Virus genome (UHGV): UHGV-0010228
Strand: one strand, 5' to 3'
Length of the DNA stretch: 64,000 bases
Origin: a virus
The notes under the pieces are model-generated. The model was given only the letters and a program-made list of their open reading frames with translations. It ran no database searches and was not told the origin of the DNA. Shown in pieces: positions 3,878-64,000 of this stretch (position 1 is the stretch's first letter; every line of letters begins with the position of its first letter). Made by a program: the position numbers and the translations under genes.

Positions 3878-4003
3878 TTTATTTCCTCCTTAATAATAAC
3901 TTATAACTAGCATTTAATCACTATAATAATATATCAATTTAAAAAAATACAAATATCAGGAAGCTTTAACATTTCATTAAAATGTATACAAGGAGGTGTA
4001 CAA

Positions 4004-7000
4004 ATGCTATTCGAAAATTATGAAGATTGGAGAGTATATCCACCACAACCGAGGATATATTTCCCTAAAAATTCTTCAAAAAATAAAACTGCAGGATATG
4101 GATCAGCGTTATTTTTATTAACCCCCAAAACTACATCATCTTTCGAATTTATGAAAGATAAAAATGTAGCACTCAGAATGTCTTTATATAAATACTATAT
4201 GATAGAGACGATGTATAAAGAAAAAATTGGTCGAAAAAATGTCATATTAAATATGACTAGACAGATGGAAGCTTTATATAATGAAAATAATGTTGAAAAA
4301 GATACTACAATATCTTATATTCCTAGACCTCAGAAAAAAGCTAGATTAAAATCTGGTAATAATATAATTGTAGATTTATCAATGTGGATGGAATTATATC
4401 TTAAATATACAGTAACTATTCAGAATCCTAAGGAAAAGTGTAGAATATTTATAGATTTATTAGATAAATTGCTTAATGATAGTAATTATAATAATTATGA
4501 AAAATTAGTATGCATAGATATAAATTCATGGACTAATAGAGCGGCAGATTGTGTTATGATGAATCGCGATCTACTCAATAACCCTCTATCAATTTTAATT
4601 TATGCTATGGTTAAATATCCGGATTTATTAAATGGAAAACTTAAAAACTTTAGAATATATCTCGTAAATAGATCTAGTAAGCAGATTTTTCTCTTTAATA
4701 CAAAAGATATTATTAAAGATAATTATAACAAATTTAAGAGTAAGATCAAATTATTCAAGGGTATATCTATATCATCTTCTGAAACTCTTGAGGGCGATAC
4801 CAATATATCAGAAGGTGAAGCCAAGGCTATCGCTATCAATAATTATAAAAATAAAGTATTAAAGTCAATGAAGAGTAATCTCTTAGGTAACAGTAAGAAT
4901 ACTGAAATTCGAGAAATTACTGACGATGATGAATTGATTGATAGTAATGATGATTATGATGAGATCTTCGATGTTACTAAAGAAATAGAAGAAGAATCTG
5001 ATGAAGTAAAACCAACCGATGAAGATTCTAATCTTTTTGATGAAATGGGAGCAGAGTTAGATCTTGATGCTGAAGCTTTGGCTGAATTAGATAATATGAT
5101 TGGTGATATTGATGATGTATCAACTGATGATATATTGAATACTCCAGTAGATGAAGTTGCAGATGATCTTGCTGAACGTGTTAAAAATAATGTATTCATT
5201 GCGGAATTTAAACCTAAGAGGACAAGTGAGCAAGAAGAGCGAAATCGTGAAATGATGGATATTCAGGCAATAGCTCTTAATCAGGAAAATATTGATAATG
5301 CAAAAACCAAGATAATTGATACAACAGATTTTTCAGACTATATCAATTCTTCCAATGTAAATATTCTTAAATCAAAATATGTTAATTTTGATAAAGACTA
5401 TGTTGAAAAGAAAATGGAAGGTGACATAGACAATGCTGTTGCTTGCTTATCTGGAGCGACAGATAAGATATTCATCACCAATAAAGAAGTTATTGATTCT
5501 TCAGACTCTTTAAATCTTAAGAGGACTTTAAAATATTCCCTTGAAGATGAAAAAGGTAATAAAATGACAATAACTTTTGATGTACCTATTATAATTGATA
5601 ACTGCTATATCTATGTAAATGGTAGTAAGAAGTTGATAGGTCATCAGTTTATATTAAAACCTCTAGTAAAAACTGGTCCTGATACTGTTCAGTTAGTAAC
5701 TTCATATAATAAAGTATTTATCACTAGAGATGGCGTTGTAGATTATATATCTTCTAGCATTATAACTTATATGGAGAAGAATCCAGAGAAGTTTAAGTGT
5801 GTTAGGGGTAATTCATCAATTAAGAATAAGAAATATAACACAGCATTAGATTTTACAATGTATGCTAAGTTATTTACTAGATTTACAATTGGTGATGAAG
5901 AATTTATTACCGGCATTGAAGAATTTTATGATAGATACAATAAAAAATATCCAACTAAAAAACTTAAGTTGGATAAAAAGAAAATTGCTGAGAAGTATCC
6001 AATTTCATTTAATAAAAAGACTGGTGAAATAAGATATATGAAATCAACTGAAAGTTTTTCGGATATCTTATTATCAATCATTGATGAAGAAGATAAGAAA
6101 GCAATTAGTAGAATTAAAAAGAAACCTAGACTGGTTTATGTTAGGGCTAAATTAATGGGCCAAATATTCCCAATGGCTCTTCTTTTAATGTATCATGAAG
6201 GATTCGCGTCTATAATGAAACGTGCAGATATTGCTTATCAATTCACAGATAAGAAGTCATATAATAAAATGGATAAAATGAGATATGATTTCTTAGAACT
6301 ATCGGATGGATTAGTCGTCTGGGAACGTAGAAATATGTTAACTTCATTACTCATGAATGGCTTAAAGCGATTAGATTTTACACCTTATACAATAGAAGAG
6401 TTAGAATCTAAGGATACTTATAGGTCATTATTAGTCGACTTATATAATGGGGATAATTCTATTTCATATAAAATAGATCAGTTCTATGATTTTACAATAG
6501 ATTCTATTACTAAGGAGATATTAGAGGATATGAATTATCCTACAAATCTTCCTGATTTATTAATATTAGCAGTTAAGATGTTATGTGATAGCGCATATGC
6601 TCTTGAAAATAATATGAATAATATGAGAATTAGAAGTAATGAGGTAATTCCAGCGATTATTCATAAAGAAATAGCAGATGCATATAACTTATATAGAAAG
6701 ACATCTTATAAGAAGAAACCAGTTAATGTATCTATTAAACCAAATATCATAATTGATAAATTACTATCTGCTGATACCAATCTCATCGAGGAATTTAGTA
6801 CTATAAATCCTGTATTAGAGATAGAAAAAGCTCGTTGTGTAACATTTAAAGGCTATAGAGGTATACAGTTAGATAGAGCGATAACTCTTCCTAGACGTGG
6901 ATATGATCCATCAATGTTAGGAATTATGGGAATTTCAACATCATCAGATGCTAACTGTGGTGTAAATAGACAGATGACATTAGAACCTGCGATTACATCT

Positions 7001-7159
7001 ACAAGAGGATACTTGGAGGTAAATGGTGTTGAAAATGTAAATTCTTTAACAGATGCTAATTTACTATCGCCAGCAGAATTATTAACACCACTCGGTGTTA
7101 TACATGATGACCCCGATAGAACTGCGATCAAAAAAAGCTTGTTAGATGTCGCAGTATAA
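4004..7159 (+). CDS. Multisubunit RNA polymerase beta subunit, N-terminal part (exon 1). The ORF reads through into a group I intron and stops at 7157-7159.
   Basis: RBS 'aaggagg'. C-terminal region 'SDANCGVNRQMTLEP' resembles the conserved bacterial beta motif 'DSNRALMGANMQRQAVPL'. 'YIYVNGSKKLIGHQFILKP' is reminiscent of 'FIINGTERVIVSQL'. Contiguous with the intron and exon 2. Confidence 0.55.
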   Translation: MLFENYEDWRVYPPQPRIYFPKNSSKNKTAGYGSALFLLTPKTTSSFEFMKDKNVALRMSLYKYYMIETMYKEKIGRKNVILNMTRQMEALYNENNVEKDTTISYIPRPQKKARLKSGNNIIVDLSMWMELYLKYTVTIQNPKEKCRIFIDLLDKLLNDSNYNNYEKLVCIDINSWTNRAADCVMMNRDLLNNPLSILIYAMVKYPDLLNGKLKNFRIYLVNRSSKQIFLFNTKDIIKDNYNKFKSKIKLFKGISISSSETLEGDTNISEGEAKAIAINNYKNKVLKSMKSNLLGNSKNTEIREITDDDELIDSNDDYDEIFDVTKEIEEESDEVKPTDEDSNLFDEMGAELDLDAEALAELDNMIGDIDDVSTDDILNTPVDEVADDLAERVKNNVFIAEFKPKRTSEQEERNREMMDIQAIALNQENIDNAKTKIIDTTDFSDYINSSNVNILKSKYVNFDKDYVEKKMEGDIDNAVACLSGATDKIFITNKEVIDSSDSLNLKRTLKYSLEDEKGNKMTITFDVPIIIDNCYIYVNGSKKLIGHQFILKPLVKTGPDTVQLVTSYNKVFITRDGVVDYISSSIITYMEKNPEKFKCVRGNSSIKNKKYNTALDFTMYAKLFTRFTIGDEEFITGIEEFYDRYNKKYPTKKLKLDKKKIAEKYPISFNKKTGEIRYMKSTESFSDILLSIIDEEDKKAISRIKKKPRLVYVRAKLMGQIFPMALLLMYHEGFASIMKRADIAYQFTDKKSYNKMDKMRYDFLELSDGLVVWERRNMLTSLLMNGLKRLDFTPYTIEELESKDTYRSLLVDLYNGDNSISYKIDQFYDFTIDSITKEILEDMNYPTNLPDLLILAVKMLCDSAYALENNMNNMRIRSNEVIPAIIHKEIADAYNLYRKTSYKKKPVNVSIKPNIIIDKLLSADTNLIEEFSTINPVLEIEKARCVTFKGYRGIQLDRAITLPRRGYDPSMLGIMGISTSSDANCGVNRQMTLEPAITSTRGYLEVNGVENVNSLTDANLLSPAELLTPLGVIHDDPDRTAIKKSLLDVAV

Positions 7160-7542
7160 TACCTTGTGAATTGCGGGGATAATTGATACTTTTTATATAC
7201 TAAATCATTATAGTAATATAATGATGGCGAGGGGTAATTCCTTAGGTATAGTAATAATTATAAAAAGAATATTAAATCCGCATCTAATGCTCTTTATACG
7301 AGAAAAGTTCAGAGACTATCGAAAGCTAGATATCTATCATTTATAGAAATATATAAAATACTATACAATATATAGTATGGATAGATTGAGATAACCAAGT
7401 GAGTAGAGTAGAGCCAAGTTATTGGGTTAGTATATATATGATATTAGTATATAGTAAATCTATTAAATCGAAGCGCAAGGGTTAGATTTTATTTGGTAAA
7501 AGAGTAAGATCTAATAAGATATAGTCCGCGATCACATTGTGG
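7001..7542 (+). ncRNA. Group I self-splicing intron with no internal ORF, interrupting the RNAP beta gene. Boundaries are approximate.
   Basis: Canonical core elements occur in the right order and spacing: P 'gAATTGCGGGg' at 7168-7178, Q 'AAATCCGCA' at 7262-7270, R 'GTTCAGAGACTATC' at 7295-7308 and S 'AAGATATAGTCC' at 7516-7527. P4 pairs tgcgg with ccgca, and P7 pairs gacta with tagtc. Candidate P1 is exon 'atct' (6997-7000) with IGS 'ggat' (7007-7010). Candidate P10 is 'aaga' (7003-7006) with exon-2 'tctt' (7543-7546). Candidate omega-G is 7542. Confidence 0.7.
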
Positions 7543-8724
7543 TCTTACAAGCAAACGAAATACATGATTCCAGTTGCTGATTCGTCACCAGTGTTAATAG
7601 GTAATAAAGTTGAATCTATTTTACCATATTTAATTTCAAATGAATTTGTTGTTGATGCTAAGCAAGATGGTGAAGTTGTTGAGATTAAAGACGATTATTG
7701 TGTCGTAAAATATAAAGATGGAACTTATTATTCTATAGATATTGGAAGTAGAATTAAGAAAAATGCAAGTGCAGGTTTCTTTATAGACAATAAATTAACT
7801 TGCAATTTAAAAGTTGGAGATAAATTCAAAAAGGGTGATATTTTAGCTTACAGTGATAAAGCATTTACTCCTAATAGAGATGGTAAAGGCGCATCTATGA
7901 ATTTAGGAGTATTAACAAAAATTGCAATTGTAAGTAATTGGGATGTATATGAGGATAGTGCACCTATCACTAAAAAATTAGCTGAACGGTTAGCTACAGA
8001 TATGGTTTGGGAAAAAGCAGTATCATTAAATCCTGGTACTTACATTGAAAAGATGGTTAAGATTGGTGATAAAATAAAGACTGGTGAATCACTGATGTTA
8101 TTTGAAGAAGTTGATGATACGGATTTCGCTGCTGTTCTTAAACAGATTCGTGAAGAAAATCAAGAAGAACTTATTGAAAGCACAAAATCAACTATTACTT
8201 CGAAATACACAGGAGAAATTGCTGATATTAAAATATATTCAACTGTGCCAGTTGAAGAGATGGATGAATCTTTAGCTAAAATAGTGACCGATTATTATAA
8301 AAAGGTCGAAAAAAGAAATAATATTCTTGAAAAATATAAGAATCCTGGAGATTGTAATTATTATAAATCTGGACAGATTATATCTGAGGAATCTAAAGTT
8401 ATGAAACCATCTAAATCTGGTAAGATTAAAGGTGAGTATGCCGAAAATTCAGTAGTTATTGTATTCTATGTTAAGTATAGAGATGTAGCTGCTAAGGGTG
8501 ATAAAGTATGTGCACAGTTCGCACTTAAGGGTGTTTGCTCACATGTTATAGAAGAAGGATTAGAGCCATATTCTGAATATAGACCAGATGAAGAAATATC
8601 AGCTCTTATTGCACCTCTTGCAGTATCTGCAAGAAAAGTTCCGTCAGTATTCAAGATGATGTTTGGTAATAAATTGCTTATAGAATTAAAACGACATTTG
8701 AAAGATATGTACTTAAATAACTAA
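7543..8724 (+). CDS. Multisubunit RNA polymerase beta subunit, C-terminal part (exon 2)
   Basis: 'IPVADSSPVLIGNKVE' resembles 'VPLMQPEAPFVGTGME'. 'GDKVCAQFALKGVCSHVIEEGLEPYSE...IAPLAVSARK' matches the universally conserved beta motif 'GDKMAGRHGNKGVISKI..EDMPY...LNPLGVPSRMN'. There is no ATG or RBS at the 5' end of the ORF (the track starts at TTG), consistent with an exon. Confidence 0.75.
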   Translation, partial: SYKQTKYMIPVADSSPVLIGNKVESILPYLISNEFVVDAKQDGEVVEIKDDYCVVKYKDGTYYSIDIGSRIKKNASAGFFIDNKLTCNLKVGDKFKKGDILAYSDKAFTPNRDGKGASMNLGVLTKIAIVSNWDVYEDSAPITKKLAERLATDMVWEKAVSLNPGTYIEKMVKIGDKIKTGESLMLFEEVDDTDFAAVLKQIREENQEELIESTKSTITSKYTGEIADIKIYSTVPVEEMDESLAKIVTDYYKKVEKRNNILEKYKNPGDCNYYKSGQIISEESKVMKPSKSGKIKGEYAENSVVIVFYVKYRDVAAKGDKVCAQFALKGVCSHVIEEGLEPYSEYRPDEEISALIAPLAVSARKVPSVFKMMFGNKLLIELKRHLKDMYLNN

Positions 8725-8848
8725 ATAAACAAATTATGAATATAAGATATTGTCTAATATCTTATATTCATAATTCTATATAAATTTTATGAATATATTA
8801 TTTTGATGATAATATTATATTTCTTAAACAGTGAAAGGAGAATTAAAA

Positions 8849-9925
8849 ATGGAAACTACGAGAAAAATTACACACAAAACGATAAAGAACGGTGAGGTTC
8901 TTGTAGACTCAACAAACACAGAAGTTACTACAATTGAAACGGGTGATAATTATCATAGAGAAATCACAATTTCAAAAAGCGAATCCGGGGAAAATGAATT
9001 TGTTTCATTTAAAGGGGTTCGTCATTTCTCCGATAATTCTTATCGAGATGAATCATATTATATTACTAACGAATCATTAGTTGGAAATGTCTCAGATGTT
9101 ACAGATATTGACGAAGGTGATTATCATATTACCATTGAAGAGCACTACTATTGTATCATTGAGGGTAATTACTTAAATAATATTCCTGAAACTCTTCCTG
9201 AAGATTCCTTAATTCTTGAACGTGTGATGGTTACTAGTAAATCTAAAACCCCTTCAGGAATTGAATATGCTGCAACTGCAGTAACTGAATGTAAGACTAC
9301 TGAAGGTATGGATGAGTATAACTATATGGTATCTACACATACTTTACCAACAGATACCGAATCACCATTTGGTGGTAAAACGCAGCTTATTGCAGTTAAT
9401 TCACTTGAACCTGGAAGAACTAGAGTTAGATTAGTATGTGTTACTGTACCTGATGATGATTCTAATCCTGAATTATTATTTGCATTTGAAAATGTAGGTA
9501 GTAAGGATTCAGATCCTTCAGCATTTATTTCAACACATATTAATTATGATCAGATGGATTCCGTTTTAAATATATCTATAACAGATCTTGAAGATGGAAA
9601 TGTGTATATTGAATTAAAGAATGAAAACGTTGAAATCGAAGTTGGAGTATCGTTAGAAGAATTCAAGAGTAGAAAAGTTACAGATATTAATGGTGCAATA
9701 TATCTCGAATCTAATATTGGGGATGATAGTAGAAACACACTTGAACTTATCGGTGATAGTGGGTTCGCTAAGATCGAACAGATCATCTCATTAATAACAT
9801 GGGATAAAGTGATTGAAAAAATCAATGATGTTTTGAAGTATATTAATAACAGTGAAATTGCAAATATAACTTTCATGTTTGAGGACGGTGAAGCACATTT
9901 TGATCCTGATTATATTCAGGCATAA
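8849..9925 (+). CDS. Hypothetical protein
   Basis: ATG at 8849 with RBS 'aaaggag' at 8834-8840. The track start at 8831 is GTG. Followed by a strong terminator. Confidence 0.6.
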   Translation: METTRKITHKTIKNGEVLVDSTNTEVTTIETGDNYHREITISKSESGENEFVSFKGVRHFSDNSYRDESYYITNESLVGNVSDVTDIDEGDYHITIEEHYYCIIEGNYLNNIPETLPEDSLILERVMVTSKSKTPSGIEYAATAVTECKTTEGMDEYNYMVSTHTLPTDTESPFGGKTQLIAVNSLEPGRTRVRLVCVTVPDDDSNPELLFAFENVGSKDSDPSAFISTHINYDQMDSVLNISITDLEDGNVYIELKNENVEIEVGVSLEEFKSRKVTDINGAIYLESNIGDDSRNTLELIGDSGFAKIEQIISLITWDKVIEKINDVLKYINNSEIANITFMFEDGEAHFDPDYIQA

Positions 9926-9955
9926 TAATATTGCTATCTAAAATTTAATATAATA

Positions 9956-9992
9956 AAGTATCACAAAATTTTGTGATACTTTATTTTTTTTC
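9956..9992 (+). terminator. Rho-independent terminator
   Basis: Hairpin 'aagtatcacaaaattttgtgatactt' followed by T9. Confidence 0.75.
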
Positions 9993-10493
9993 TGAAAATA
10001 TTTTGATAGATTTTTAAACGATATATTACTCAGATGAATCTTTCGTTTCATAAGAGTTTATATAGAAATATTTCTATATAAACTCTTATTCCTAGTTGTA
10101 TATAAATGAGCTTATATAAATATAAATATTTATATAAGTAGATAGATATTAGAATTTATATATAATCTATATAGAGTTTATAGAGCTTTTATATATAAAT
10201 ATAGTAGATATTATATATATTTATATAAATAGAAAATAAATTATAAATAGTTATGAATTTTATTAAAGAATATTATTTACAGTTATATAAATAAATCTAT
10301 ATAAATAAATCTATATAAATATTTCAATACTCAATAAATATAAAAATACTCTTTAATAAATATATTATATAATAGAATATAAATTATATCCGATATAAAA
10401 ATACCCTACCCTGACGGCATCCGAGCAATATATCTTCGATATAATGTTATGGGGTATTTTTAAGTTTTCAACCCCCGAAAGGAGTCAATTAAA
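9993..10493. repeat. Non-coding AT-rich region with a 38-bp perfect palindrome (10051-10088) and about 8 copies of the 'TATATAAATA' iteron. Candidate origin or regulatory hub.
   Basis: 'taagagtttatatagaaat|atttctatataaactctta' is a perfect inverted repeat. 'ttatataaat' recurs throughout 10100-10330, including the tandem 'aaatctatataaataaatctatataaat'. There is a stem-loop 'aaataccc...gggtattt' at 10401-10456. Confidence 0.6.
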
Positions 10494-11006
10494 ATGAAAT
10501 TTTACAGAGCAGATTATGGTGCATACACATTAGCAATTTCAGAAAAGGAAAAATATGCTAGAAAGTATGCAGAAGATATGAGATGTCTATCTTCAAATAG
10601 TTCAGATAATAAGTCATATACTATTAAAGAAATAGATACAACATATGATGAATTAATGAATAATGATTTAGAAGGAAGATTAGTTCAGAAAATGGGTAAA
10701 GGATTATATCTTACATATGAAGATATATATCTATTAGATAAAGAATCTTCCAACTTTATATCTTTATATGAAAATACAATCAAATCTCTACAAGAATTAG
10801 CATATTATAGTTCAAAGATACCTTCTAATACAGGATTAACAGAAAAATTTAAAGATCTAAGAAGTATAATGGTAGATTACAATTCTAATTTTCAGAAAGC
10901 AAAATTCTCAGCTGCAGTACAACACAACTCACCAGTATTTTCTGAAAATATAGATGAATATATCTTTTATGTATTCGGATCTAATGAATTAAAATGTTCA
11001 AATTAA
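10494..11006 (+). CDS. Hypothetical protein
   Basis: RBS 'aaaggag'. 170-aa ORF. Confidence 0.55.
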   Translation: MKFYRADYGAYTLAISEKEKYARKYAEDMRCLSSNSSDNKSYTIKEIDTTYDELMNNDLEGRLVQKMGKGLYLTYEDIYLLDKESSNFISLYENTIKSLQELAYYSSKIPSNTGLTEKFKDLRSIMVDYNSNFQKAKFSAAVQHNSPVFSENIDEYIFYVFGSNELKCSN

Positions 11007-11150
11007 TTATAATATAAAAGAAATATAGTAGAAGGCTAAAAGCCTTCTACTATATTTACCACACAGATTTTCAAAAAGGAATGAATTATTTGAGGAAAAA
11101 TTTATACAATATGTTTTCAAATTTACATATATGTTTAGTATATTCTAAAA

Positions 11151-11696
11151 TTAAAACGGATTATATTGCATAGCCATAGAACTGAATTTCTCAAGAATTA
11201 TTCCACCATTATCAGGATTCTTCCAATATTCTTTAGAAGTTTTTGAAAAATTTAAATTACATTCAAATTTAATAAATTCTTTAAATTTTTTATATGGCAT
11301 TCTACACATATGCATCCAACAATCCTTGAAAAAGTCATCATAAAGATTATTTTTTATAGCCCATTTGTAGCCAGGAGTAGTTCTTGATGTGAATAGATAT
11401 GGTGCATCCCATAATATCATTTGTTCACCTTCCATTTTAGCAGTGAATATAATTATGTAATCTATACCGTTATTAGGATTGTAATTTAAATATGCATATA
11501 TACGAGTTAGTTTGGGGAAATATATCTTATAATTATCTAATAAATTCTGAAATACAATTTGCCTATCATTTGGTGAAATAAACATTAATTCGTTCATAGG
11601 TGGAACTACCTTATCTCTTATCTTAATCATTTTTTGATTCCTCCTTTTCATCATTAAATAGAGTGTTAAAGAGTGTATAGAGAATTCTCTATACAC
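11151..11696 (-). CDS. Hypothetical protein
   Basis: 181-aa ORF convergent with 10494-11006. Confidence 0.5.
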   Translation of the reverse strand: MYREFSIHSLTLYLMMKRRNQKMIKIRDKVVPPMNELMFISPNDRQIVFQNLLDNYKIYFPKLTRIYAYLNYNPNNGIDYIIIFTAKMEGEQMILWDAPYLFTSRTTPGYKWAIKNNLYDDFFKDCWMHMCRMPYKKFKEFIKFECNLNFSKTSKEYWKNPDNGGIILEKFSSMAMQYNPF

Positions 11697-11848
11697 TCTT
11701 TAATCGGGAATAAACTACACTAGGATTTATATTACAATAGGAGATTTAGTAATTTTCTTTTTTCTAGGTTTTACATACATGTTAATACAATATAAAAATT
11801 TATTTATATTAATATATTATTAATTTGATAGGAGGAAATATAAATATT

Positions 11849-12976
11849 ATGAGAAAAGGTATAATCTTAAAGAATAGTGGTAAATATAGTATCAAATCTT
11901 TACCAAAATTAATTCCAAAAAGAAATAAATTAGATAAGATTAAGTATATCTTATTACCAATAATGGGAGATATGTATAATATATACTTACCATTAATACC
12001 AACTGAATTAATGTATTCTACAAAAATTACAGTTAATATGATATTAGGCACATATTCTGTTGACTATGAAACTGAAGAGATCATATACTTAGATGAATTA
12101 TATGATGATAGAGAATTTGATGATTATATATCGTTTATAAATTATATTTATACTATATATAAATCAGATGGATTCAATATTGTATTTTCATCATTAAAAT
12201 CAGACTCATTTAATGTTGAAATATTTGAATTCTTAAAAGTTACAAGTCTGGATATTAAATTTTATAAAGATAATGAATTAAAAGATAAAATCTTTTATGA
12301 ATCTGAAGATCCAGATTATCAAAATTATTATATAAATGGAGTTGAAGCTATAAATCAAGATTTAATATCGTTATTAGATAAAATAATAGTTCCAACGTAT
12401 AATCCACATAGTCAACCAAAAAGATTGGAAAGTATATTATTTAATGATTTAGGATATGAATTCTCACCAATAAATGATTTAAAAGATAATCATATTTATT
12501 GCGATTTTGTATTATATCCAATATATGAATTTAATAGTTTCATAATGATATCTCCAGATGAAATAGAAAATCTCAGCAAAAATTATTCATCTAGGTTATA
12601 CATCTTAACATTGCCCAAAATAATTAAGTATTATAATGATCCTCAAGTAATGAATAATATTAAAAATCTAATAATACGAGATGAAATATCTGGTGAGTTG
12701 GATGTATGGGATTACTTTGAGTATTCAATATTATATTATGATCGTATATTAACTTTAATACCATATATAGAGTATATTTGCTTATATTTAGAATATATAT
12801 ACATGAATTATCTTGATGATAATATTAATCCTGGAGAAAGCAATATACTTATTAAAGTTAATAGTGATGGAAGAAGATTATCTGATTGTGATTACTATCT
12901 TTTATCAGAATTAAAAGATCGTAATAATATAAATTCAATTATATCTAAACTATTAGAAGGAGAAGACAATGATTAA
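11849..12976 (+). CDS. Hypothetical protein (Y/I/N-rich)
   Basis: ATG at 11849 with RBS 'taggagg'. A plus-oriented 'taatatattattaatttg' motif lies at 11809-11826. Confidence 0.55.
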   Translation: MRKGIILKNSGKYSIKSLPKLIPKRNKLDKIKYILLPIMGDMYNIYLPLIPTELMYSTKITVNMILGTYSVDYETEEIIYLDELYDDREFDDYISFINYIYTIYKSDGFNIVFSSLKSDSFNVEIFEFLKVTSLDIKFYKDNELKDKIFYESEDPDYQNYYINGVEAINQDLISLLDKIIVPTYNPHSQPKRLESILFNDLGYEFSPINDLKDNHIYCDFVLYPIYEFNSFIMISPDEIENLSKNYSSRLYILTLPKIIKYYNDPQVMNNIKNLIIRDEISGELDVWDYFEYSILYYDRILTLIPYIEYICLYLEYIYMNYLDDNINPGESNILIKVNSDGRRLSDCDYYLLSELKDRNNINSIISKLLEGEDND

Positions 12977-13679
12977 AAACATGATAATGAAAAGTAGATT
13001 CTTAAAAATCTATATGCCTTTAGATGAGAAAGATGCTTTATTAATATTGAATGAAGCAAGCCAGATCTTTGATAATGGTATAGTGATTTATCCTCACGAT
13101 ATCGATTCACCTATAGATCCAGAATCGTGCTATATAATAAAACATAAAGGTGAATCTCCAAATGGTGACATATTCAGATATATATCTGATTGTGCAATAC
13201 TTAATGGGTCAGATTCGATTCCATCAACACTAATTCCAATGGAATTAGAAATCGCACCAGCAACAAATATTCATATACTAAGTAAATTAGATACTGAAAG
13301 ATCAAATGATAAATTCATAATTTATCCATGTACAGATATGAATTTAATAATCAAAGTAAAGACAAAATTTTATGAAAAAGTAGTATCATCAGTAAAAGGT
13401 GTCAGATTTGATTTTGCATTGAAACCTATAGGTGAAGTACTTAATAGATATAACATATTTAATTCAACTGCATTGATATCTGATATATTTCTGGTTGTTA
13501 AATATATGCTTTATCTACCATATATCGTAATGGCATATGGAGATGCGTGTGCACTTAAGATATCTATAGAATATAAAGATAAGTCAACAACTAATATTCT
13601 ATACTCATATGATGATGTTGTTCATGGTAATATTATAGCTGATGTAATGGAGGTGATAAATTGGAAGGAATCTCATTAG
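12969..13679 (+). CDS. Hypothetical protein
   Basis: Start overlaps the upstream stop (ATGATTAA). 236 aa. Confidence 0.55.
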   Translation: MIKNMIMKSRFLKIYMPLDEKDALLILNEASQIFDNGIVIYPHDIDSPIDPESCYIIKHKGESPNGDIFRYISDCAILNGSDSIPSTLIPMELEIAPATNIHILSKLDTERSNDKFIIYPCTDMNLIIKVKTKFYEKVVSSVKGVRFDFALKPIGEVLNRYNIFNSTALISDIFLVVKYMLYLPYIVMAYGDACALKISIEYKDKSTTNILYSYDDVVHGNIIADVMEVINWKESH

Positions 13680-13763
13680 ACAAAATTCTGGAGAGTTTAA
13701 ACTCTCCAGAAAATAAACTGATAAATCCAAATTATAAAGGTAATATAGAGGAGGACAATACTG

Positions 13764-14378
13764 GTGATATTTGATAAACTTACAATGAAAATTATTAATA
13801 ATGAAAAGAAATTGATAGATTTAAATAATAGTGAATCTACAGCATTTGCTGTAGATATTATAACAGAATATTGTGTCCACAATAAAACTCATATAATACA
13901 AATAGTAAAATCGTCTATTGTAGCATTACTATTAATGATTATAATGATATTTTCTTGGATAAATATGTATAAGCATCAAGTTGTGATAAATATGGATTAT
14001 GATTTATTAGTTGCAATAGATCATATTTTATTAACAATATGTAGCATATATGCGCTATATTATTTAATTTCATCTGGAAAAATAACTGTATTATTAGTTG
14101 ACGTATATAATTCAATTAATCACTTAGGTAGTTTGAGTAAACTTCATAAAGAAATTAATAGTATCGATCCAGATGAACTCAAGACTAATAAATCTAAGGA
14201 ATTATTTAGCCAAGCAATTAATCAAGTTGTAAATCTTAGTGAACTTAAAACTGCATATTTAATTGCTGATCATTTATCATATGCCAACGAATATGTATCT
14301 TTCAATAGAGTGCGAAATTTCATGAATAAATTGGTTGTGTGTTATGTTGCGTTAACATCTTTCTTAATATATATTTAA
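13764..14378 (+). CDS. Membrane protein (multiple TM helices)
   Basis: GTG start with 'gaggagg' 8 nt upstream. Hydrophobic segments 'IVALLLMIIMIFSWI' and 'LLTICSIYALYYLI'. Confidence 0.5.
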   Translation: MIFDKLTMKIINNEKKLIDLNNSESTAFAVDIITEYCVHNKTHIIQIVKSSIVALLLMIIMIFSWINMYKHQVVINMDYDLLVAIDHILLTICSIYALYYLISSGKITVLLVDVYNSINHLGSLSKLHKEINSIDPDELKTNKSKELFSQAINQVVNLSELKTAYLIADHLSYANEYVSFNRVRNFMNKLVVCYVALTSFLIYI

Positions 14379-14396
14379 ATTGGAGGTTAAAATACT

Positions 14397-14858
14397 ATGA
14401 GTAATATGAAAAATTTTAATCTTAATAATCCGTTCGTTATTAAGTGTAAAGAGAGTTATGATAATCTCAATAAGACAATAATTGAATCTATCAAGGCTTC
14501 AATTGAGATGATTATTGGTACCTTTATAATAGTGCTAATAGATTTATTAGGGCATTTTCTTATGCCTGAATATAATAATATCACTAGAGCACTGATAAGT
14601 GCAATTGTATTATTTACATTAGTTATTATATTATCAACCCTATTAGTTGATAATATAATACGCAAATCTAAATTAGTTGATATAAATAAATTAATAGATT
14701 CAAATTCATTTGAAGTATTAAATGCTAATAATGAATTACTATTCAATACCAATCTTGAAATAGAAAATCTAGAAGGTAAATGTAATGTTATGATAAATGT
14801 ATTTATTGTAACATTATGTGTTGAAATTGTTAGTCAGATTATATTATGGGTGGTGTAA
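14397..14858 (+). CDS. Membrane protein
   Basis: RBS 'ggaggt'. TM segments 'IIGTFIIVLIDLLG' and 'ISAIVLFTLVIILSTLLV'. Confidence 0.5.
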   Translation: MSNMKNFNLNNPFVIKCKESYDNLNKTIIESIKASIEMIIGTFIIVLIDLLGHFLMPEYNNITRALISAIVLFTLVIILSTLLVDNIIRKSKLVDINKLIDSNSFEVLNANNELLFNTNLEIENLEGKCNVMINVFIVTLCVEIVSQIILWVV

Positions 14859-14861
14859 GTT

Positions 14862-15359
14862 ATGGAAATAAATGGAATAATTAAAAAATATAAGTTATCA
14901 TCTTTACCTGAAGATATCAAAAGTGATATATTATCTATGAGCCCTAAATATATTCCTGAGATTATTAAAACTAATACTTCTACATTTATAAAGGCTAATG
15001 ATATAGCAATGATAGATAATTGGTCTAAATCATATATTAGATTTATATTGTATGATGTAAATGGTAAAATGATCGATAATGATGGGGATTATATTGAATA
15101 TGATGATTCGTTATATATGGCAAGATATTCAATATCATCTATAGCTACAATAGATCAGTTGAATATGGATTATGTAGTTAAATGTGATGATATTGAGTTA
15201 TATGGAGTTATTGATGGTAATGGTAATACTAGATATATAGGATTTATATCTATGGACTTAGATAAATTTCCAGATTTAAATTCAATAATATTTGGAGAAG
15301 AAAATAGAGAAATAATTTATAATAAATTCTTCAAGTATAATCAGAATATAAAAAAATAA
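14862..15359 (+). CDS. Hypothetical protein
   Basis: 165-aa ORF tightly following 14397-14858. Confidence 0.5.
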   Translation: MEINGIIKKYKLSSLPEDIKSDILSMSPKYIPEIIKTNTSTFIKANDIAMIDNWSKSYIRFILYDVNGKMIDNDGDYIEYDDSLYMARYSISSIATIDQLNMDYVVKCDDIELYGVIDGNGNTRYIGFISMDLDKFPDLNSIIFGEENREIIYNKFFKYNQNIKK

Positions 15360-15375
15360 ATTTATTAAAGTCTAT

Positions 15376-15412
15376 ATCAAAGAGAGTTCCAACATTGGAA
15401 CTCTCTTTGATA
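15376..15412. terminator. Bidirectional terminator hairpin between convergent genes
   Basis: 'atcaaagagagttccaacattggaactctctttgat' forms a 15-bp stem. Confidence 0.65.
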
Positions 15413-15441
15413 GTTTGGTAGAAGATATTTTTTATTTTTCT

Positions 15442-15981
15442 TTAGTAATGCACTACTCCTCCAAGTGCATCCATGATAGGGTCGAGCTTCCGACCAATGT
15501 GCTTATATATACGCATATGGTCGTTAATTTCTGGAGTGAATTTTCCTCCAGAAACTTCAAGCTCCTTCTGGATCAGTTTTTCCAGCTGATCCATAGCTCC
15601 TATAAGAGCCTTTGCTTTTTCGTTGAGTTCTTCGTTATTCATCTTTGAGTAAGAAGAATTCGTACTTGAAAAAGCTTTCTTTGCTTTGTCTCTTGTAAAG
15701 CAAAGTAAAGATTTGAGTTTCTGAGCTGCCGGTGGAAGGATCTTAGCTGCAGCATATGCTGTACCATATGTTACAGCACAAAGGCCGGCATATGCTCCTA
15801 ATACAGCAGCCGTTACTTTTATAGCATCTGCAGGAGTTGCCTTAAGGTCAGTTGTTTTTTCAACTTCCTCGTTCTCGATCTGTTCTCGAGCCTCAACGAC
15901 TCTGCGATCCTGAAGATTTGATAATAAATTCTCTTCAGTTGTAGTTGTAGTATTAACCTGATTCATCTTATTTTTTCTCAT
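15442..15981 (-). CDS. Membrane-anchored hypothetical protein, GC-richer than its surroundings (moron-like)
   Basis: Roughly 40% GC against about 28% around it. TM segment 'VTAAVLGAYAGLCAVTYGTAYAAA'. RBS 'aaggagg'. Preceded by the conserved terminator-promoter module. Confidence 0.6.
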   Translation of the reverse strand: MRKNKMNQVNTTTTTEENLLSNLQDRRVVEAREQIENEEVEKTTDLKATPADAIKVTAAVLGAYAGLCAVTYGTAYAAAKILPPAAQKLKSLLCFTRDKAKKAFSSTNSSYSKMNNEELNEKAKALIGAMDQLEKLIQKELEVSGGKFTPEINDHMRIYKHIGRKLDPIMDALGGVVHY

Positions 15982-18888: not shown

Positions 18889-18978
18889 GATAATTCTCCT
18901 TTCGTAATTCAGAATTTTATTGAATTGTTAAAAAATTAAATAGATAGTAGAATGATATCTACTATCTATTTAATTTAT

Positions 18979-19611
18979 TTAGAGGTCTTCTTTATCCGCT
19001 ACAGGAGTAGGAGCTTTGTAAGGGTCGAAAATAACTTCATTTCGATATACTCCTATAGCATCTTCAAGATTAATCTTTTTGCTTACAAATGCAAATGATC
19101 CTCGATTATTAGTTATTTCTGATAAGTCAATATTATTTACAGATTCACCATCAATAATATCTGTAATAATATTCTTTATATAACCATAATGCCGACGAAT
19201 GTTTTCGCCTTCTTTAACAGATATCATTACAAAATCTGTACTATTAATATCAACATTATATGGCCCATGTATTGTATCGAAAGTGAATACAAAGTCGGAT
19301 TCTTTATTTCTAGGACTTGGTATTCTTCCATAACGAATAAATACTCTCTCTGCAGATATGATATCTGAGAGTAATATTGTACGAGGAATTGTAAGATGTG
19401 TTGGTCCTTCTTCAGACCACTGAACATTAGATTCTAATGTAACTTCCTTTTTTTCTTCATTTATGATTACATTACATATAGATGCTATCAATTCCATCCC
19501 ATTGTTTAATCTAAAATGATATGTGCATGATGATGAAATGAATCCTGATATTGGCTGATCTTCCTTAAATACAGGAATATTCCATCCCTTTCTAACAGTA
19601 GCTGATGCCAT
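18979..19611 (-). CDS. Hypothetical protein
   Basis: 210-aa ORF. The promoter-like motif 'cattgtaataatataatatt' lies at 19668-19687 upstream. Confidence 0.5.
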   Translation of the reverse strand: MASATVRKGWNIPVFKEDQPISGFISSSCTYHFRLNNGMELIASICNVIINEEKKEVTLESNVQWSEEGPTHLTIPRTILLSDIISAERVFIRYGRIPSPRNKESDFVFTFDTIHGPYNVDINSTDFVMISVKEGENIRRHYGYIKNIITDIIDGESVNNIDLSEITNNRGSFAFVSKKINLEDAIGVYRNEVIFDPYKAPTPVADKEDL

Positions 19612-19706
19612 GTTAATCTCCTCTCTATAAAAACTTTCTTTAAAAATAAAATATTAATAAGTTATTTACATTGTAATAATATAATATTAGAGAGGAGACT
19701 CATTAA

Positions 19707-20296: not shown

Positions 20297-20698
20297 TTAA
20301 TTATTTTCCTTCATAGCTTTCTTAGCTTCTTTAGCAGCCTTACGTCTAGCAAAGAATCCTCTAAGACCAGTCTTCTTTACTGGTGTTAAATCTTTGCCCT
20401 CTTCCTTAAGTTCTTTAATCCTTTCAGTATCAAGTGGCTTCATTTCAGATTCCTCCTCCTTTTTTTCCATGTTATTTAAATTTTTTATTTTATTCTTTTC
20501 GAGTATGATATGAACTTCATTATATAAAGCACCATCTAATTCCTTAAGACGAACATGCATATCCTTGCTAATCGTTGTTTTAGATACGTTAAATTCCTTA
20601 GATGCTGCAAGCATTGTTGATTTATGATTAACAATCCACTTAGCTTCGTCAATAACCCGCTTATCAATAACTTCACTAAATACAAATTCTTTTTCCAT
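20297..20698 (-). CDS. spoIIID: SpoIIID-like HTH sporulation transcription regulator (stage III sporulation protein D family) with a K/E-rich C-terminal extension
   Basis: 'IDKRVIDEAKWIVNHKSTMLAASKEFNVSKTTISKDMHVRLKELDGALYNEVHIILEKNK' aligns with B. subtilis SpoIIID 'IKERTIKIGKYIVETKKTVRVIAKEFGVSKSTVHKDLTERLPEINPDLANEVKEILDYHK'. This is my recalled sequence, at about 40-45% identity. Confidence 0.7.
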   Translation of the reverse strand: MEKEFVFSEVIDKRVIDEAKWIVNHKSTMLAASKEFNVSKTTISKDMHVRLKELDGALYNEVHIILEKNKIKNLNNMEKKEEESEMKPLDTERIKELKEEGKDLTPVKKTGLRGFFARRKAAKEAKKAMKENN

Positions 20699-29940: not shown

Positions 29941-30116
29941 AAAAATAATAAATAGGATAGCCTAAGGCTATCCTATTTATTATATATAATGTAAGAAAAA
30001 GAAGACACACAACTTTCAACTTTTCAGAATTTACATATATGTTTATAAAAAATTTATATCTATATCTAGAGATATTTTAACATTTAGATAATGATTTAAG
30101 GAGGTGATTTGTAATT

Positions 30117-56206: not shown

Positions 56207-56294
56207 AATCTAAAATCCTCCTGTTAATATTAATTATACGTTAAACAGTTACATATATGTTAGATCGATATTGAATAATTAAAGGAGGTATACT

Positions 56295-63233: not shown

Positions 63234-63293
63234 GACGATTGGAGTATACGTCAATCTGTGCGCCATTACAGATTTACAAGTACTCCAATCGTC
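63234..63293 (+). other. GC-richer two-tier stem-loop downstream of the polymerase gene
   Basis: 13-bp stem 'gacgattggagta' pairing with 'tactccaatcgtc', and an inner stem 'tctgt' with 'acaga'. No T-run follows. Confidence 0.4.
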
Positions 63294-63427
63294 TAACAAA
63301 TTAGATAATAACTATAAAGAGGGGCGGATATTTATATCCGATAGATATTAACACCTTAATAATATATAGATGAAAAATTAATATATTACGATGAAATAAT
63401 AATAGAGTAGAATGATATCATTCTACT

Positions 63428-64000
63428 CTATTTTATAAACATTGCACTAGTTATTGGTAAAAAGTATTCGCCTTCTGCAGATAAATTCATTACGTATTTA
63501 CTGATTCTATACTGACCATTCACATTTGTCATATTTACTTTAGTATTTGAAATTGATACAGTAAATGTTTTGTTTGGTGTTAATGCAGACATTATAAGTG
63601 AATTGCTATTAAGTGTTAAAATACTCTGATTTTCATTTATTTTTTTAGCAATTTGTGAAGCCGTATTAGCACCACCATTGTAAACATAGGTTACAGTATT
63701 AGAACCGAATTTACCTCCTGTAGTAGTACTAATACTACCAGATGCTGCATCGATTACTTGTATATTACTAACAGTTGTATCATTACTTTTATTCTCAAAT
63801 TTGTATGACCCCTCAGGGATTATTACATTATAAGTCTTATTTTTTCCGTCTATATACATTCCTGATATCGCAGACGTTTTTTCATTATCGCCAGATAGTG
63901 ATAACAGATTAATTGTACGATATTCATTAGTATAATATGCTGTGCATTTAGTCTGTTTATCTATTATATAGCCGCGGTTTAGATCGAAAAATATTATAGT
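63428..64000 (-). CDS. Hypothetical protein, probably 5'-truncated by the window edge
   Basis: The minus-strand frame stays open from 64000 through the track's first Met at 63859. Terminator hairpin at 63396-63421 downstream. Confidence 0.45.
   Translation of the reverse strand, partial: TIIFFDLNRGYIIDKQTKCTAYYTNEYRTINLLSLSGDNEKTSAISGMYIDGKNKTYNVIIPEGSYKFENKSNDTTVSNIQVIDAASGSISTTTGGKFGSNTVTYVYNGGANTASQIAKKINENQSILTLNSNSLIMSALTPNKTFTVSISNTKVNMTNVNGQYRISKYVMNLSAEGEYFLPITSAMFIK

Follow-up and report, generated by a model that had tools for sequence, protein, structure and literature searches.

A predicted AR9-type early promoter and a hairpin in the AT-rich island of an uncultured gut jumbo phage

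The early promoters of Bacillus phage AR9, which are read by its virion RNA polymerase, have the form AAATATATATTAT-N6-G(+1), and its late promoters conform to AACA-N6-TA/G; 5' untranslated regions (UTRs) extend up to 491 nt, and the virion polymerase is reported to be sensitive to single changes in the promoter (Lavysh et al. 2017, PMC5312081). In the jumbo phage 201phi2-1, long-read transcriptomics assigned 8 of 11 small RNAs to premature termination in 5' UTRs (PMC11512511). The locus compared with these systems here is a non-coding, very AT-rich island at positions 9926-10493 of a 64,000-nucleotide stretch of the viral genome UHGV-0010228 (the window), directly upstream of an orphan gene of 170 amino acids (aa).

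The reading we favour, at roughly an even chance, is that the island is the control and leader region of this orphan early gene (10494-11006), made up of an early promoter (P_A), a 5' hairpin (the palindrome P1) and an AT-rich leader or spacer prone to slippage. As judged from related contigs, the conserved functional core is a 98-bp module of promoter plus hairpin (9992-10089), a credible regulatory element. An earlier sequence-only reading had proposed a replication origin or a regulatory centre; the second description holds in a narrower sense, that of a conserved AR9-type early promoter with a structurally conserved hairpin downstream. The features concerned are as follows.

8849-9925, + strand: upstream 358-aa gene (open reading frame, ORF)
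9952-9993, + strand: intrinsic terminator of the 358-aa gene, a 15-pair hairpin followed by a T8 run (terminator scan)
10021-10029, + strand: core ATATATTAC of the predicted early promoter P_A, with its predicted start at G10036 and a T-rich stretch upstream
10050-10089, no strand: P1, a perfect 40-bp palindrome (ATAAGAGTTTATATAGAAAT/ATTTCTATATAAACTCTTAT) that begins at +15 of the predicted P_A transcript
10090-10355, no strand: AT-rich repeat tract, GC 0.12, with 10 exact and further degenerate copies of TATATAAAT and incomplete P1-arm copies (10173-10185, for example)
10284-10321, + strand: tandem 14-mer TATATAAATAAATC, 2.7 copies (Tandem Repeats Finder)
10360-10375, + strand: P_B, a weak and doubtful second match to the early pattern (ATATATTATATAATAG), 5.8 bits by the promoter matrix
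10392-10466, + strand: weakly supported leader stem-loop (aaataccc...gggtattt), then a U-rich run (minimum-energy fold)
10477-10484, + strand: ribosome-binding site GAAAGGAG, 9 nt before the ATG at 10494, kept in related contigs L027 and L028
10494-11006, + strand: 170-aa orphan gene that the island would serve (ORF)
11151-11630, - strand: 159-aa orphan gene, convergent with the 170-aa gene (gene calls in contigs L001 and L027; homologue in L013 44% identical)
11666-11703, no strand: P2, a perfect 38-bp palindrome between a late-type promoter and the 159-aa gene
11771-11784, - strand: the late-type promoter motif TAACATGTATGTAA, pointing at P2 and the 159-aa gene
3967, 17195, 18917, 26725, 30078 and 59118: examples of the late-type motif TAACA-N6-TAA

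The pattern ATATATTAY-N6-G occurs 16 times in the window compared with 3.6 expected, a number reached by no shuffle, and 13 of the 16 copies have a tighter form, ATATATTATT-N4-TG, with a run of T upstream. These 13 canonical early sites, whose flanks were read by eye, are in sense orientation and lie from a few tens to about 130 nt before start codons. The late-type motif TAACA-N6-TAA is present in 12 copies, all of them between ORFs when compared with the ORF list. Because of these motif statistics and positions, the phage appears to use a system of early and late promoters like that of AR9. The copy at 3967 lies upstream of the RNA polymerase beta gene (4004), and by analogy with AR9 this beta would be that of the virion-packaged polymerase. 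The early promoters resemble those of AR9 in the core ATATATTAT, in the 6 nt separating it from a G and in their placement upstream of genes; split multisubunit polymerase genes and the recurrence in the window of a second, late-type motif (AACA-N6-TA) are further points of likeness. However, RNA polymerase beta of the window phage is only about 30% identical to that of AR9-like phages, and the local early consensus is the tighter form with its upstream T-run.

P_A (ATATATTAC-TCAGAT-G, 10021-10036) has 8 of the 9 core bases, the right spacing and the G. It scores 15.5 bits with a promoter matrix built from the 13 canonical early sites, inside their training range of 14.8-30.4 bits, and ranks 16th in the window. 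It is intergenic and in sense orientation, following the terminator at 9952-9993 and preceding the next + strand gene, which starts 458 nt on at 10494 (AR9 UTRs reach 491 nt). The promoter lies 14 nt before P1.

In contig L027, which is 86% identical overall and encodes a 170-aa protein 92% identical to that of the window, the block carrying P_A (9992-10049) is identical at 58 of 58 positions. Third codon positions of the 170-aa gene are 81% identical in the same comparison. At 0.81 per site, 58 unchanged positions have a probability of about 5e-6 (0.81^58), and the P_A block is therefore strongly constrained. The two genes are 90-92% identical in L027, whereas P_B and the leader are 83% identical, approximately the near-neutral rate, and the repeat tract is 65% identical (gapped alignment), 58 nt longer and of GC 0.11. 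On this comparison the tract evolves faster than the near-neutral rate and is the least conserved part of the island.

P1 has changed in a different manner. It is identical to its L027 counterpart at 35 of 40 positions. One of the five differences is central, and the other four are paired as mirror images: T8 becomes A where A33 becomes T, and A19 becomes T where T22 becomes A. Pairing of the arms stays perfect, the L027 sequence is again a palindrome, and its fold is nearly as stable (-20.9 compared with -21.1 kcal/mol in the window, where the RNA hairpin has a z-score of -7.7). Because the substitutions are mirror-symmetric, the comparison argues that P1 is needed as a base-paired structure, in RNA or in single-stranded DNA, rather than as an exact sequence read by base-specific protein contacts. 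The palindrome had been described as 38 bp long (10051-10088); it is indeed perfect, but extends one base further at each end. Length and perfection as such are common in the window, where 15 perfect palindromes have arms of at least 16 nt, mostly at gene ends and terminator-like, and a long perfect palindrome is therefore not special in this genome. P1 is followed by TCCTAGTTG and lacks the T run that, with a hairpin, would mark an intrinsic terminator.

The ORF-free gap that contains the module measures 568 bp (9926-10493, from the stop at 9925 to the ATG at 10494) rather than the 500 bp first reported, has a GC content of 0.18, and is the largest such gap found in the window; no + strand ORF of at least 20 aa was found inside it. 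The statement that gaps elsewhere are below 150 bp is roughly right, although others of 170-380 bp occur between ORFs of at least 100 aa (for example, 7160-7536). The island is also the most AT-rich stretch of the 64 kb, with GC 0.08, 0.107 and 0.133 over 200, 300 and 400 bp, respectively, compared with 0.165-0.195 for the next-lowest stretches at these scales. The sequence-only reading had placed a ribosome-binding site before the next gene, which agrees with GAAAGGAG, and had overlooked the terminator of the upstream gene. That terminator folds at -16.4 kcal/mol (z = -6.2), its hairpin (9952-9985) is the sole hit of the terminator scan around the island, and the short contigs L025 and L027 break inside it.

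Most of the island is the repeat tract. The TATATAAAT motif has 10 exact copies in 10099-10320, seven on the + strand and three on the - strand; the whole window has 31. When the tract is shuffled with its dinucleotides preserved, 0.67-0.93 copies are expected, with maxima of 4 and 6, and not one of 2,500 shuffles reached 10; AT-richness alone therefore does not explain the array. Start-to-start spacings on the + strand are 14, 79, 30, 62, 14 and 14 bp. The array of about eight direct repeats noticed earlier between 10100 and 10330 is thus real, but has 10 members within slightly different limits, three of them inverted; a tandem repeat within it was also correctly seen, as the 14-mer TATATAAATAAATC. 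The P1 arm includes the array motif (TCTATATAAAC), and the tract holds incomplete copies of that arm (repeat families D3, D13 and D15). No helical phasing or curvature of A-tracts (10-11 bp periodicity) was found in the window's tract, and AT and GC skew, taken as a sign of transcription of the tract, disagree between the window and L027.

Even among close relatives the tract varies. Four strains (L020-L023) that are 99.3-99.5% identical to the window over 15-20 kb have one 14-bp unit fewer (two rather than three) and a small A/T swap, two of the four have a 6-bp ATATAA indel in the tract, and they differ by one T in the T run of the terminator. Repeat number is therefore polymorphic. In L027 only four exact TATATAAAT copies are present, at other positions, while TATAAAT is still enriched (10 copies compared with 3.0 expected). 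By these comparisons the tract is not a set of conserved protein-binding iterons. By our own reading, copies of TATATAAAT outside the island are mostly inside ORFs or beside terminators and not at gene starts. Single CTATATAAAT-like copies stand beside terminator hairpins at 8777-8808 and 2503-2511, one of them 7 nt before the early promoter that serves the 358-aa gene; sequence at terminator-promoter junctions may be the source of the array motif. An AT-rich island is also present in L016, a related phage of 259 kb whose beta piece is 64% identical. There, GC falls to 0.09 at 19401-19700 in low-complexity AAATAAAT-type repeats between convergent genes, in another genomic context, and AT-rich tracts may recur in this phage group.

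More distant contigs show which parts of the locus can be absent. L013, in which the C-terminal beta piece is 71% identical, has the same gene order after the polymerase genes, with homologues of the 170-aa protein (28% identical), the 159-aa protein (44%) and those of the following genes. It lacks the 358-aa gene, the palindrome and the array, and an ordinary early promoter, GATATATTATTATGG, stands about 45 nt from the start codon of its counterpart of the 170-aa gene. The still more distant L014 and L016 have different genes after the polymerase. Homologues of the 170-aa protein are otherwise 92% and 81% identical. No further relatives came from viral contigs searched with the 358-aa and 170-aa proteins or from metagenome contigs searched with a 170-aa alignment, and an exact pattern of the P_A block had no match in either type of contig. 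A 23-mer pattern from the tandem repeat matched two unrelated-looking AT-rich contigs, which were taken as chance.

The 3' part of the leader contributes less. A long-loop stem previously placed at 10401-10456 does appear in the minimum-energy fold, where roughly 10396-10408 pairs with 10450-10462, but it is no better than shuffles (z = -1.2; -2.2 in L027). In L027 a T to C change in the right arm is uncompensated and leaves an A.C mismatch. Taken with the divergence of this region (83% identity, near neutral), these observations leave a conserved riboswitch-like element at 10396-10462 unsupported. Rfam searches, at gathering thresholds over the whole window and at E<=1 over 9900-10600, returned solely chance hairpin matches to microRNA-type models.

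In the model that we favour, the injected virion polymerase would read P_A, which lies beyond the terminator of the upstream gene, and start at G10036. Fourteen nucleotides into the transcript, P1 would work by base pairing, as a hairpin formed most likely in RNA. Its role may be that of a 5' stem-loop stabilizing or processing the message, of a site for a double-strand RNase, or of a promoter-proximal stop that curbs read-through and releases a short RNA of about 55 nt. The TATATAAAT tract, about 260 bp, would be a low-complexity, slippage-prone spacer that arose in part from copied P1-arm sequence. Read-through of P_A transcripts would make it the larger part of a 458-nt AU-rich leader, and if it matters at all it would act by composition and length, as an AU-rich leader or spacer. 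The option of a short RNA has a parallel in the 5' UTR small RNAs of 201phi2-1, likewise a jumbo phage with its own RNA polymerases, in that a strong hairpin lies downstream of a predicted start, within tens of nucleotides, and precedes a coding gene. Unlike that case, P1 has no U tract; 201phi2-1 is, moreover, a Pseudomonas phage, whereas the window belongs to a low-GC gut phage.

The palindrome P2, near the convergent 159-aa gene, resembles P1. Its RNA hairpin folds at -24.7 kcal/mol, and L027 and L028 carry P2 without change over the part that they cover. The arms of P1 and P2 are identical at 14 of 16 positions, the second highest value among 105 palindrome pairs, and share AAGAGTNTATANAGAA, whose sole exact matches in the window are those four arms. 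P1 and P2 are thus related hairpins in 5'-leader positions that bracket the convergent orphan genes of 170 and 159 aa, an arrangement that suggests a shared regulator, which could be a DNA- or RNA-binding protein or a nuclease. A mobile or invertible cassette bounded by the two palindromes was ruled out, as L013 has both genes in the same order without them.

Several points weigh against the control-region model. P_A departs from AR9 promoters in having a C in place of the canonical T at core position 9, and the AR9 virion polymerase is reported to be sensitive to single changes. Early firing of P_A, the hairpin function of P1 and transcription of the tract are predictions. The symmetry of a palindrome can persist by template-switch mutation without selection. 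Without a U tract P1 is not a canonical intrinsic terminator, and a start 14 nt from the 5' end of the transcript is far for a classic 5' stabilizer. A DNA-binding regulator shared by P1 and P2 would also account for the likeness of their arms. Finally, both lineages keep an extreme tract composition (GC 0.11-0.12), a similar tract size and an excess of TATAAAT, which hints at some constraint beyond that on a neutral spacer.

That retained composition is among the observations that could instead indicate a transcription-activated origin. The primary origin of T7 and oriF and oriG of T4 consist of a promoter followed by an unwinding element, with elements of tens of base pairs. Applied to the island, P_A, the P1 hairpin and an AT-rich tract of 260-340 bp would together form such an origin: a transcript of the virion polymerase, perhaps shaped by P1, would form an R-loop and prime the leading strand, and an unwinding region that needs composition alone would leave its sequence free to drift. 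The layout is of the right kind, since the predicted promoter at 10021-10036 is followed by GC 0.08-0.13 over 10090-10400, and a conserved promoter thus sits directly upstream of the most AT-rich 200-400 bp of the window (at least 0.165 elsewhere). Composition and approximate size, but not sequence, are kept in L027, and conservation of sequence is not needed in the T4 and T7 origins either. A 2026 review of jumbo phages mentions neither a replication origin nor an iteron, which leaves no competing site. The island nevertheless differs from those origins in a much longer tract, in the 40-bp hairpin interposed and in being absent from a syntenic relative.

Further points also tell against this kind of origin. 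L013 has no such tract despite its gene order; the module adjoins an accessory gene, that of 358 aa, which L013 also lacks; and the AT-rich tract of L016 in another context raises the possibility that such tracts are a general by-product. Gene orientation accounts for GC skew per gene (coefficient 0.18, intercept 0.001), and the fit is no better with a breakpoint at 9-11 kb (F 0.8-1.5). GC skew, which the sequence-only reading had proposed to check, thus shows no orientation-independent break at about 10 kb (F ~1), a weak test since skew in this genome follows transcription and gene strand. We consider an origin of this type unlikely. If it were real, it would be the first origin candidate for AR9-like jumbo phages that encode their own multisubunit RNA polymerases, and a testable entry into how these phages start DNA replication, a topic unmentioned in the 2026 review.

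It may also be, with a similarly low probability, that the island is a platform for protein binding. A dimeric regulator of the phage would recognize CTATATAAA-like sites, with P1 and P2 as high-affinity operators between promoters and the convergent orphan genes, and the array as a set of low-affinity sites. The restriction of AAGAGTNTATANAGAA to the P1 and P2 arms and the rank of that pair are in keeping with this, as are the position of both palindromes downstream of a predicted promoter and upstream of a gene, their lack of T tracts, the array motif within the P1 arm, the partial P1-arm copies in the array and the enrichment of TATAAAT in L027. However, the half-sites of P1 and those of P2 differ by 2 bp per arm in their distance from the centre, an awkward geometry for a single dimer, and the changes that L027 shows in P1 are symmetric about its centre, at a position where P1 and P2 also differ, a pattern that fits base pairing better than base-specific contacts. 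Array sites are not conserved in position or number, and related palindromes also occur among ordinary terminators, so that similarity of arms need not mean an operator. No DNA-binding domain was found in the neighbouring genes by Pfam, PHROG and PDB sequence searches or in two structure models, of the 170-aa and 159-aa proteins, whose predicted local distance difference test (pLDDT) values of 36 and 50, respectively, are too poor for a fold search.

A classical iteron origin with a dedicated initiator, or a packaging (pac) or centromere-like site, was the main proposal of the sequence-only reading and is now very improbable. In iteron origins (R6K, P1, pPS10 and lambda ori, where P1 names an origin and not the palindrome) repeats, an inverted repeat and AT-rich DNA are found together beside a gene, and in origins of the plasmid and lambda type an inverted repeat of iteron halves is the operator of the initiator gene. 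A repeated motif, a palindrome and AT-rich DNA do coincide in the island, where the lowest GC of the window adjoins the repeats. The repeats themselves, however, are short (9-10 bp), in both orientations and irregularly spaced at 14, 14, 30, 62 and 79 bp, without the 10-11 bp phasing of regular direct repeats. They are not conserved in close relatives: 65% identity in L027 beside a protein 92% identical, a polymorphic copy number in L020-L023 and no tract in the syntenic L013. No match to a Rep protein, initiator or terminase was found in any ORF scanned across the window (PHROG and Pfam), and the nine neighbouring genes at 8849-15981, among which an initiator (Rep or O-like) would be expected, have no Pfam, PHROG or PDB sequence match of any kind; a pac site would be expected in or beside the gene of the terminase small subunit, which the PHROG scan thus did not place here. 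No DnaA box (TTATCCACA at <=1 mismatch) is present in 9926-10493. In its classical form the origin reading is contradicted, and the case is a caution that repeats and a palindrome in AT-rich phage DNA are no evidence of an origin, the repeats of this island being its least conserved part.

Least credible of all is a cluster of strong promoters, the other suggestion made from the sequence alone: the DNA is very AT-rich, with TATAAT-like words, the real-looking P_A and the weak P_B, but P_A alone among the sites of the island scores at the level of an early promoter, nothing in the repeat tract exceeds 5 bits by the early-promoter matrix (which also rules out an array of degenerate early promoters), the late-type TAACA-N6-TAA motif is absent from the island, sigma-70-like sites are not above shuffles (8 compared with 9.2), and TATATAAAT copies elsewhere are, by our own reading, mostly away from gene starts.

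The window has a GC content of about 29%, and near-identical contigs come from human-gut metagenome assemblies, Hadza samples among them; samples with the phage include ERZ4562246, ERZ4559413 and ERR7738254, and one source gives a contig of 256,540 bp. The window is therefore that of an uncultured gut jumbo phage, distantly AR9-like, with split multisubunit RNA polymerase genes. RNA polymerase beta is encoded in two pieces, 4004-7159 and 7537-8724 (PHROG 3148/14872, E 1e-45 to 1e-79; Pfam RNA_pol_Rpb2_6), and its nearest named relatives are jumbo phages of Listeria, Staphylococcus and Bacillus (AR9/PBS1-like) and Yersinia phage phiR1-37, at just 25-32% amino-acid identity. Other products recognized in profile scans are topoisomerase II, a GroEL-like protein, DNA polymerase, virion proteins, holins and a SpoIIID-like protein. 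A megablast search of phage records with 7500-12000 gave no DNA-level match, and a tRNA/tmRNA scan of the window found no genes. The 170-aa and 159-aa proteins have no significant Pfam, PHROG or PDB sequence match. The host is probably a low-GC spore-former. The SpoIIID-like gene (20297-20698, - strand) matches a phage family of sporulation stage III protein D (phrog_11726, E = 2e-15), a hint that the host is a spore-forming Firmicute and that the phage may interfere with sporulation.

The two beta pieces are separated by a 377-bp gap (7160-7536), and the second, starting at TTG 7537 or ATG 7564, has no upstream ribosome-binding site. The PHROG 14872 profile is contiguous over the junction (profile positions 1008 and 1011). 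The gap has an RNA fold with z = -3.0, its flanks pair (GUGAAUUGCGG with CCGCGAUCAC), and relatives have gaps of 285-341 bp in the same place; nothing was found for it in Rfam. It may be that this gap is a self-splicing intron rather than a true gene split.

Several short Logan/ENA contigs (L001, L024, L025, L027 and L028) start or stop inside the palindromes at 9952-9985, 10050-10089 and 11666-11703. This is an assembly-graph artefact of long palindromes, and the region of interest is fragmented in other samples. A second lineage at 86% identity (sample SRR11450244) is represented by contigs L026 and L028, both interrupted at the island. The terminator-like palindromes at 18933-18976, 63401-63432 and 11021-11057 have ATAGTAGAATGATATC-like arms in common at 13-15 of 16 positions; such families suggest either duplication of hairpin elements or a sequence preference of the phage polymerase at terminators. 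Three identical 13-mers, TTACATATATGTT, are located at 11123-11135, 30031-30043 and 56249-56261, with a variant at 11771-11783, and their reverse complement, AACATATATGTAA, fits the AR9 late pattern AACA-N6-TA. By our own reading, two of the three point at the terminator hairpin of the preceding gene. Sites that face terminators in this way would give antisense or very short transcripts.

On the - strand at 63234-63367, an early-promoter match of 28.7 bits, among the strongest, is followed by about 130 nt without an ORF. Flanked by the DNA polymerase gene and a 143-aa gene, the stretch ends in a hairpin with 26-nt arms and a T8 run (fold -39.2 kcal/mol, z = -6.0), and is a candidate early small non-coding RNA.

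As a whole, the island adds one more example to kinds of phage regulatory element that are already known. The phage appears to share a two-promoter code with Bacillus phage AR9 despite a polymerase identity of about 30%, and early and late genes would thus be predictable from sequence alone. The conserved promoter-plus-hairpin module and the candidate small RNA at 63234-63367 are targets for transcript mapping.

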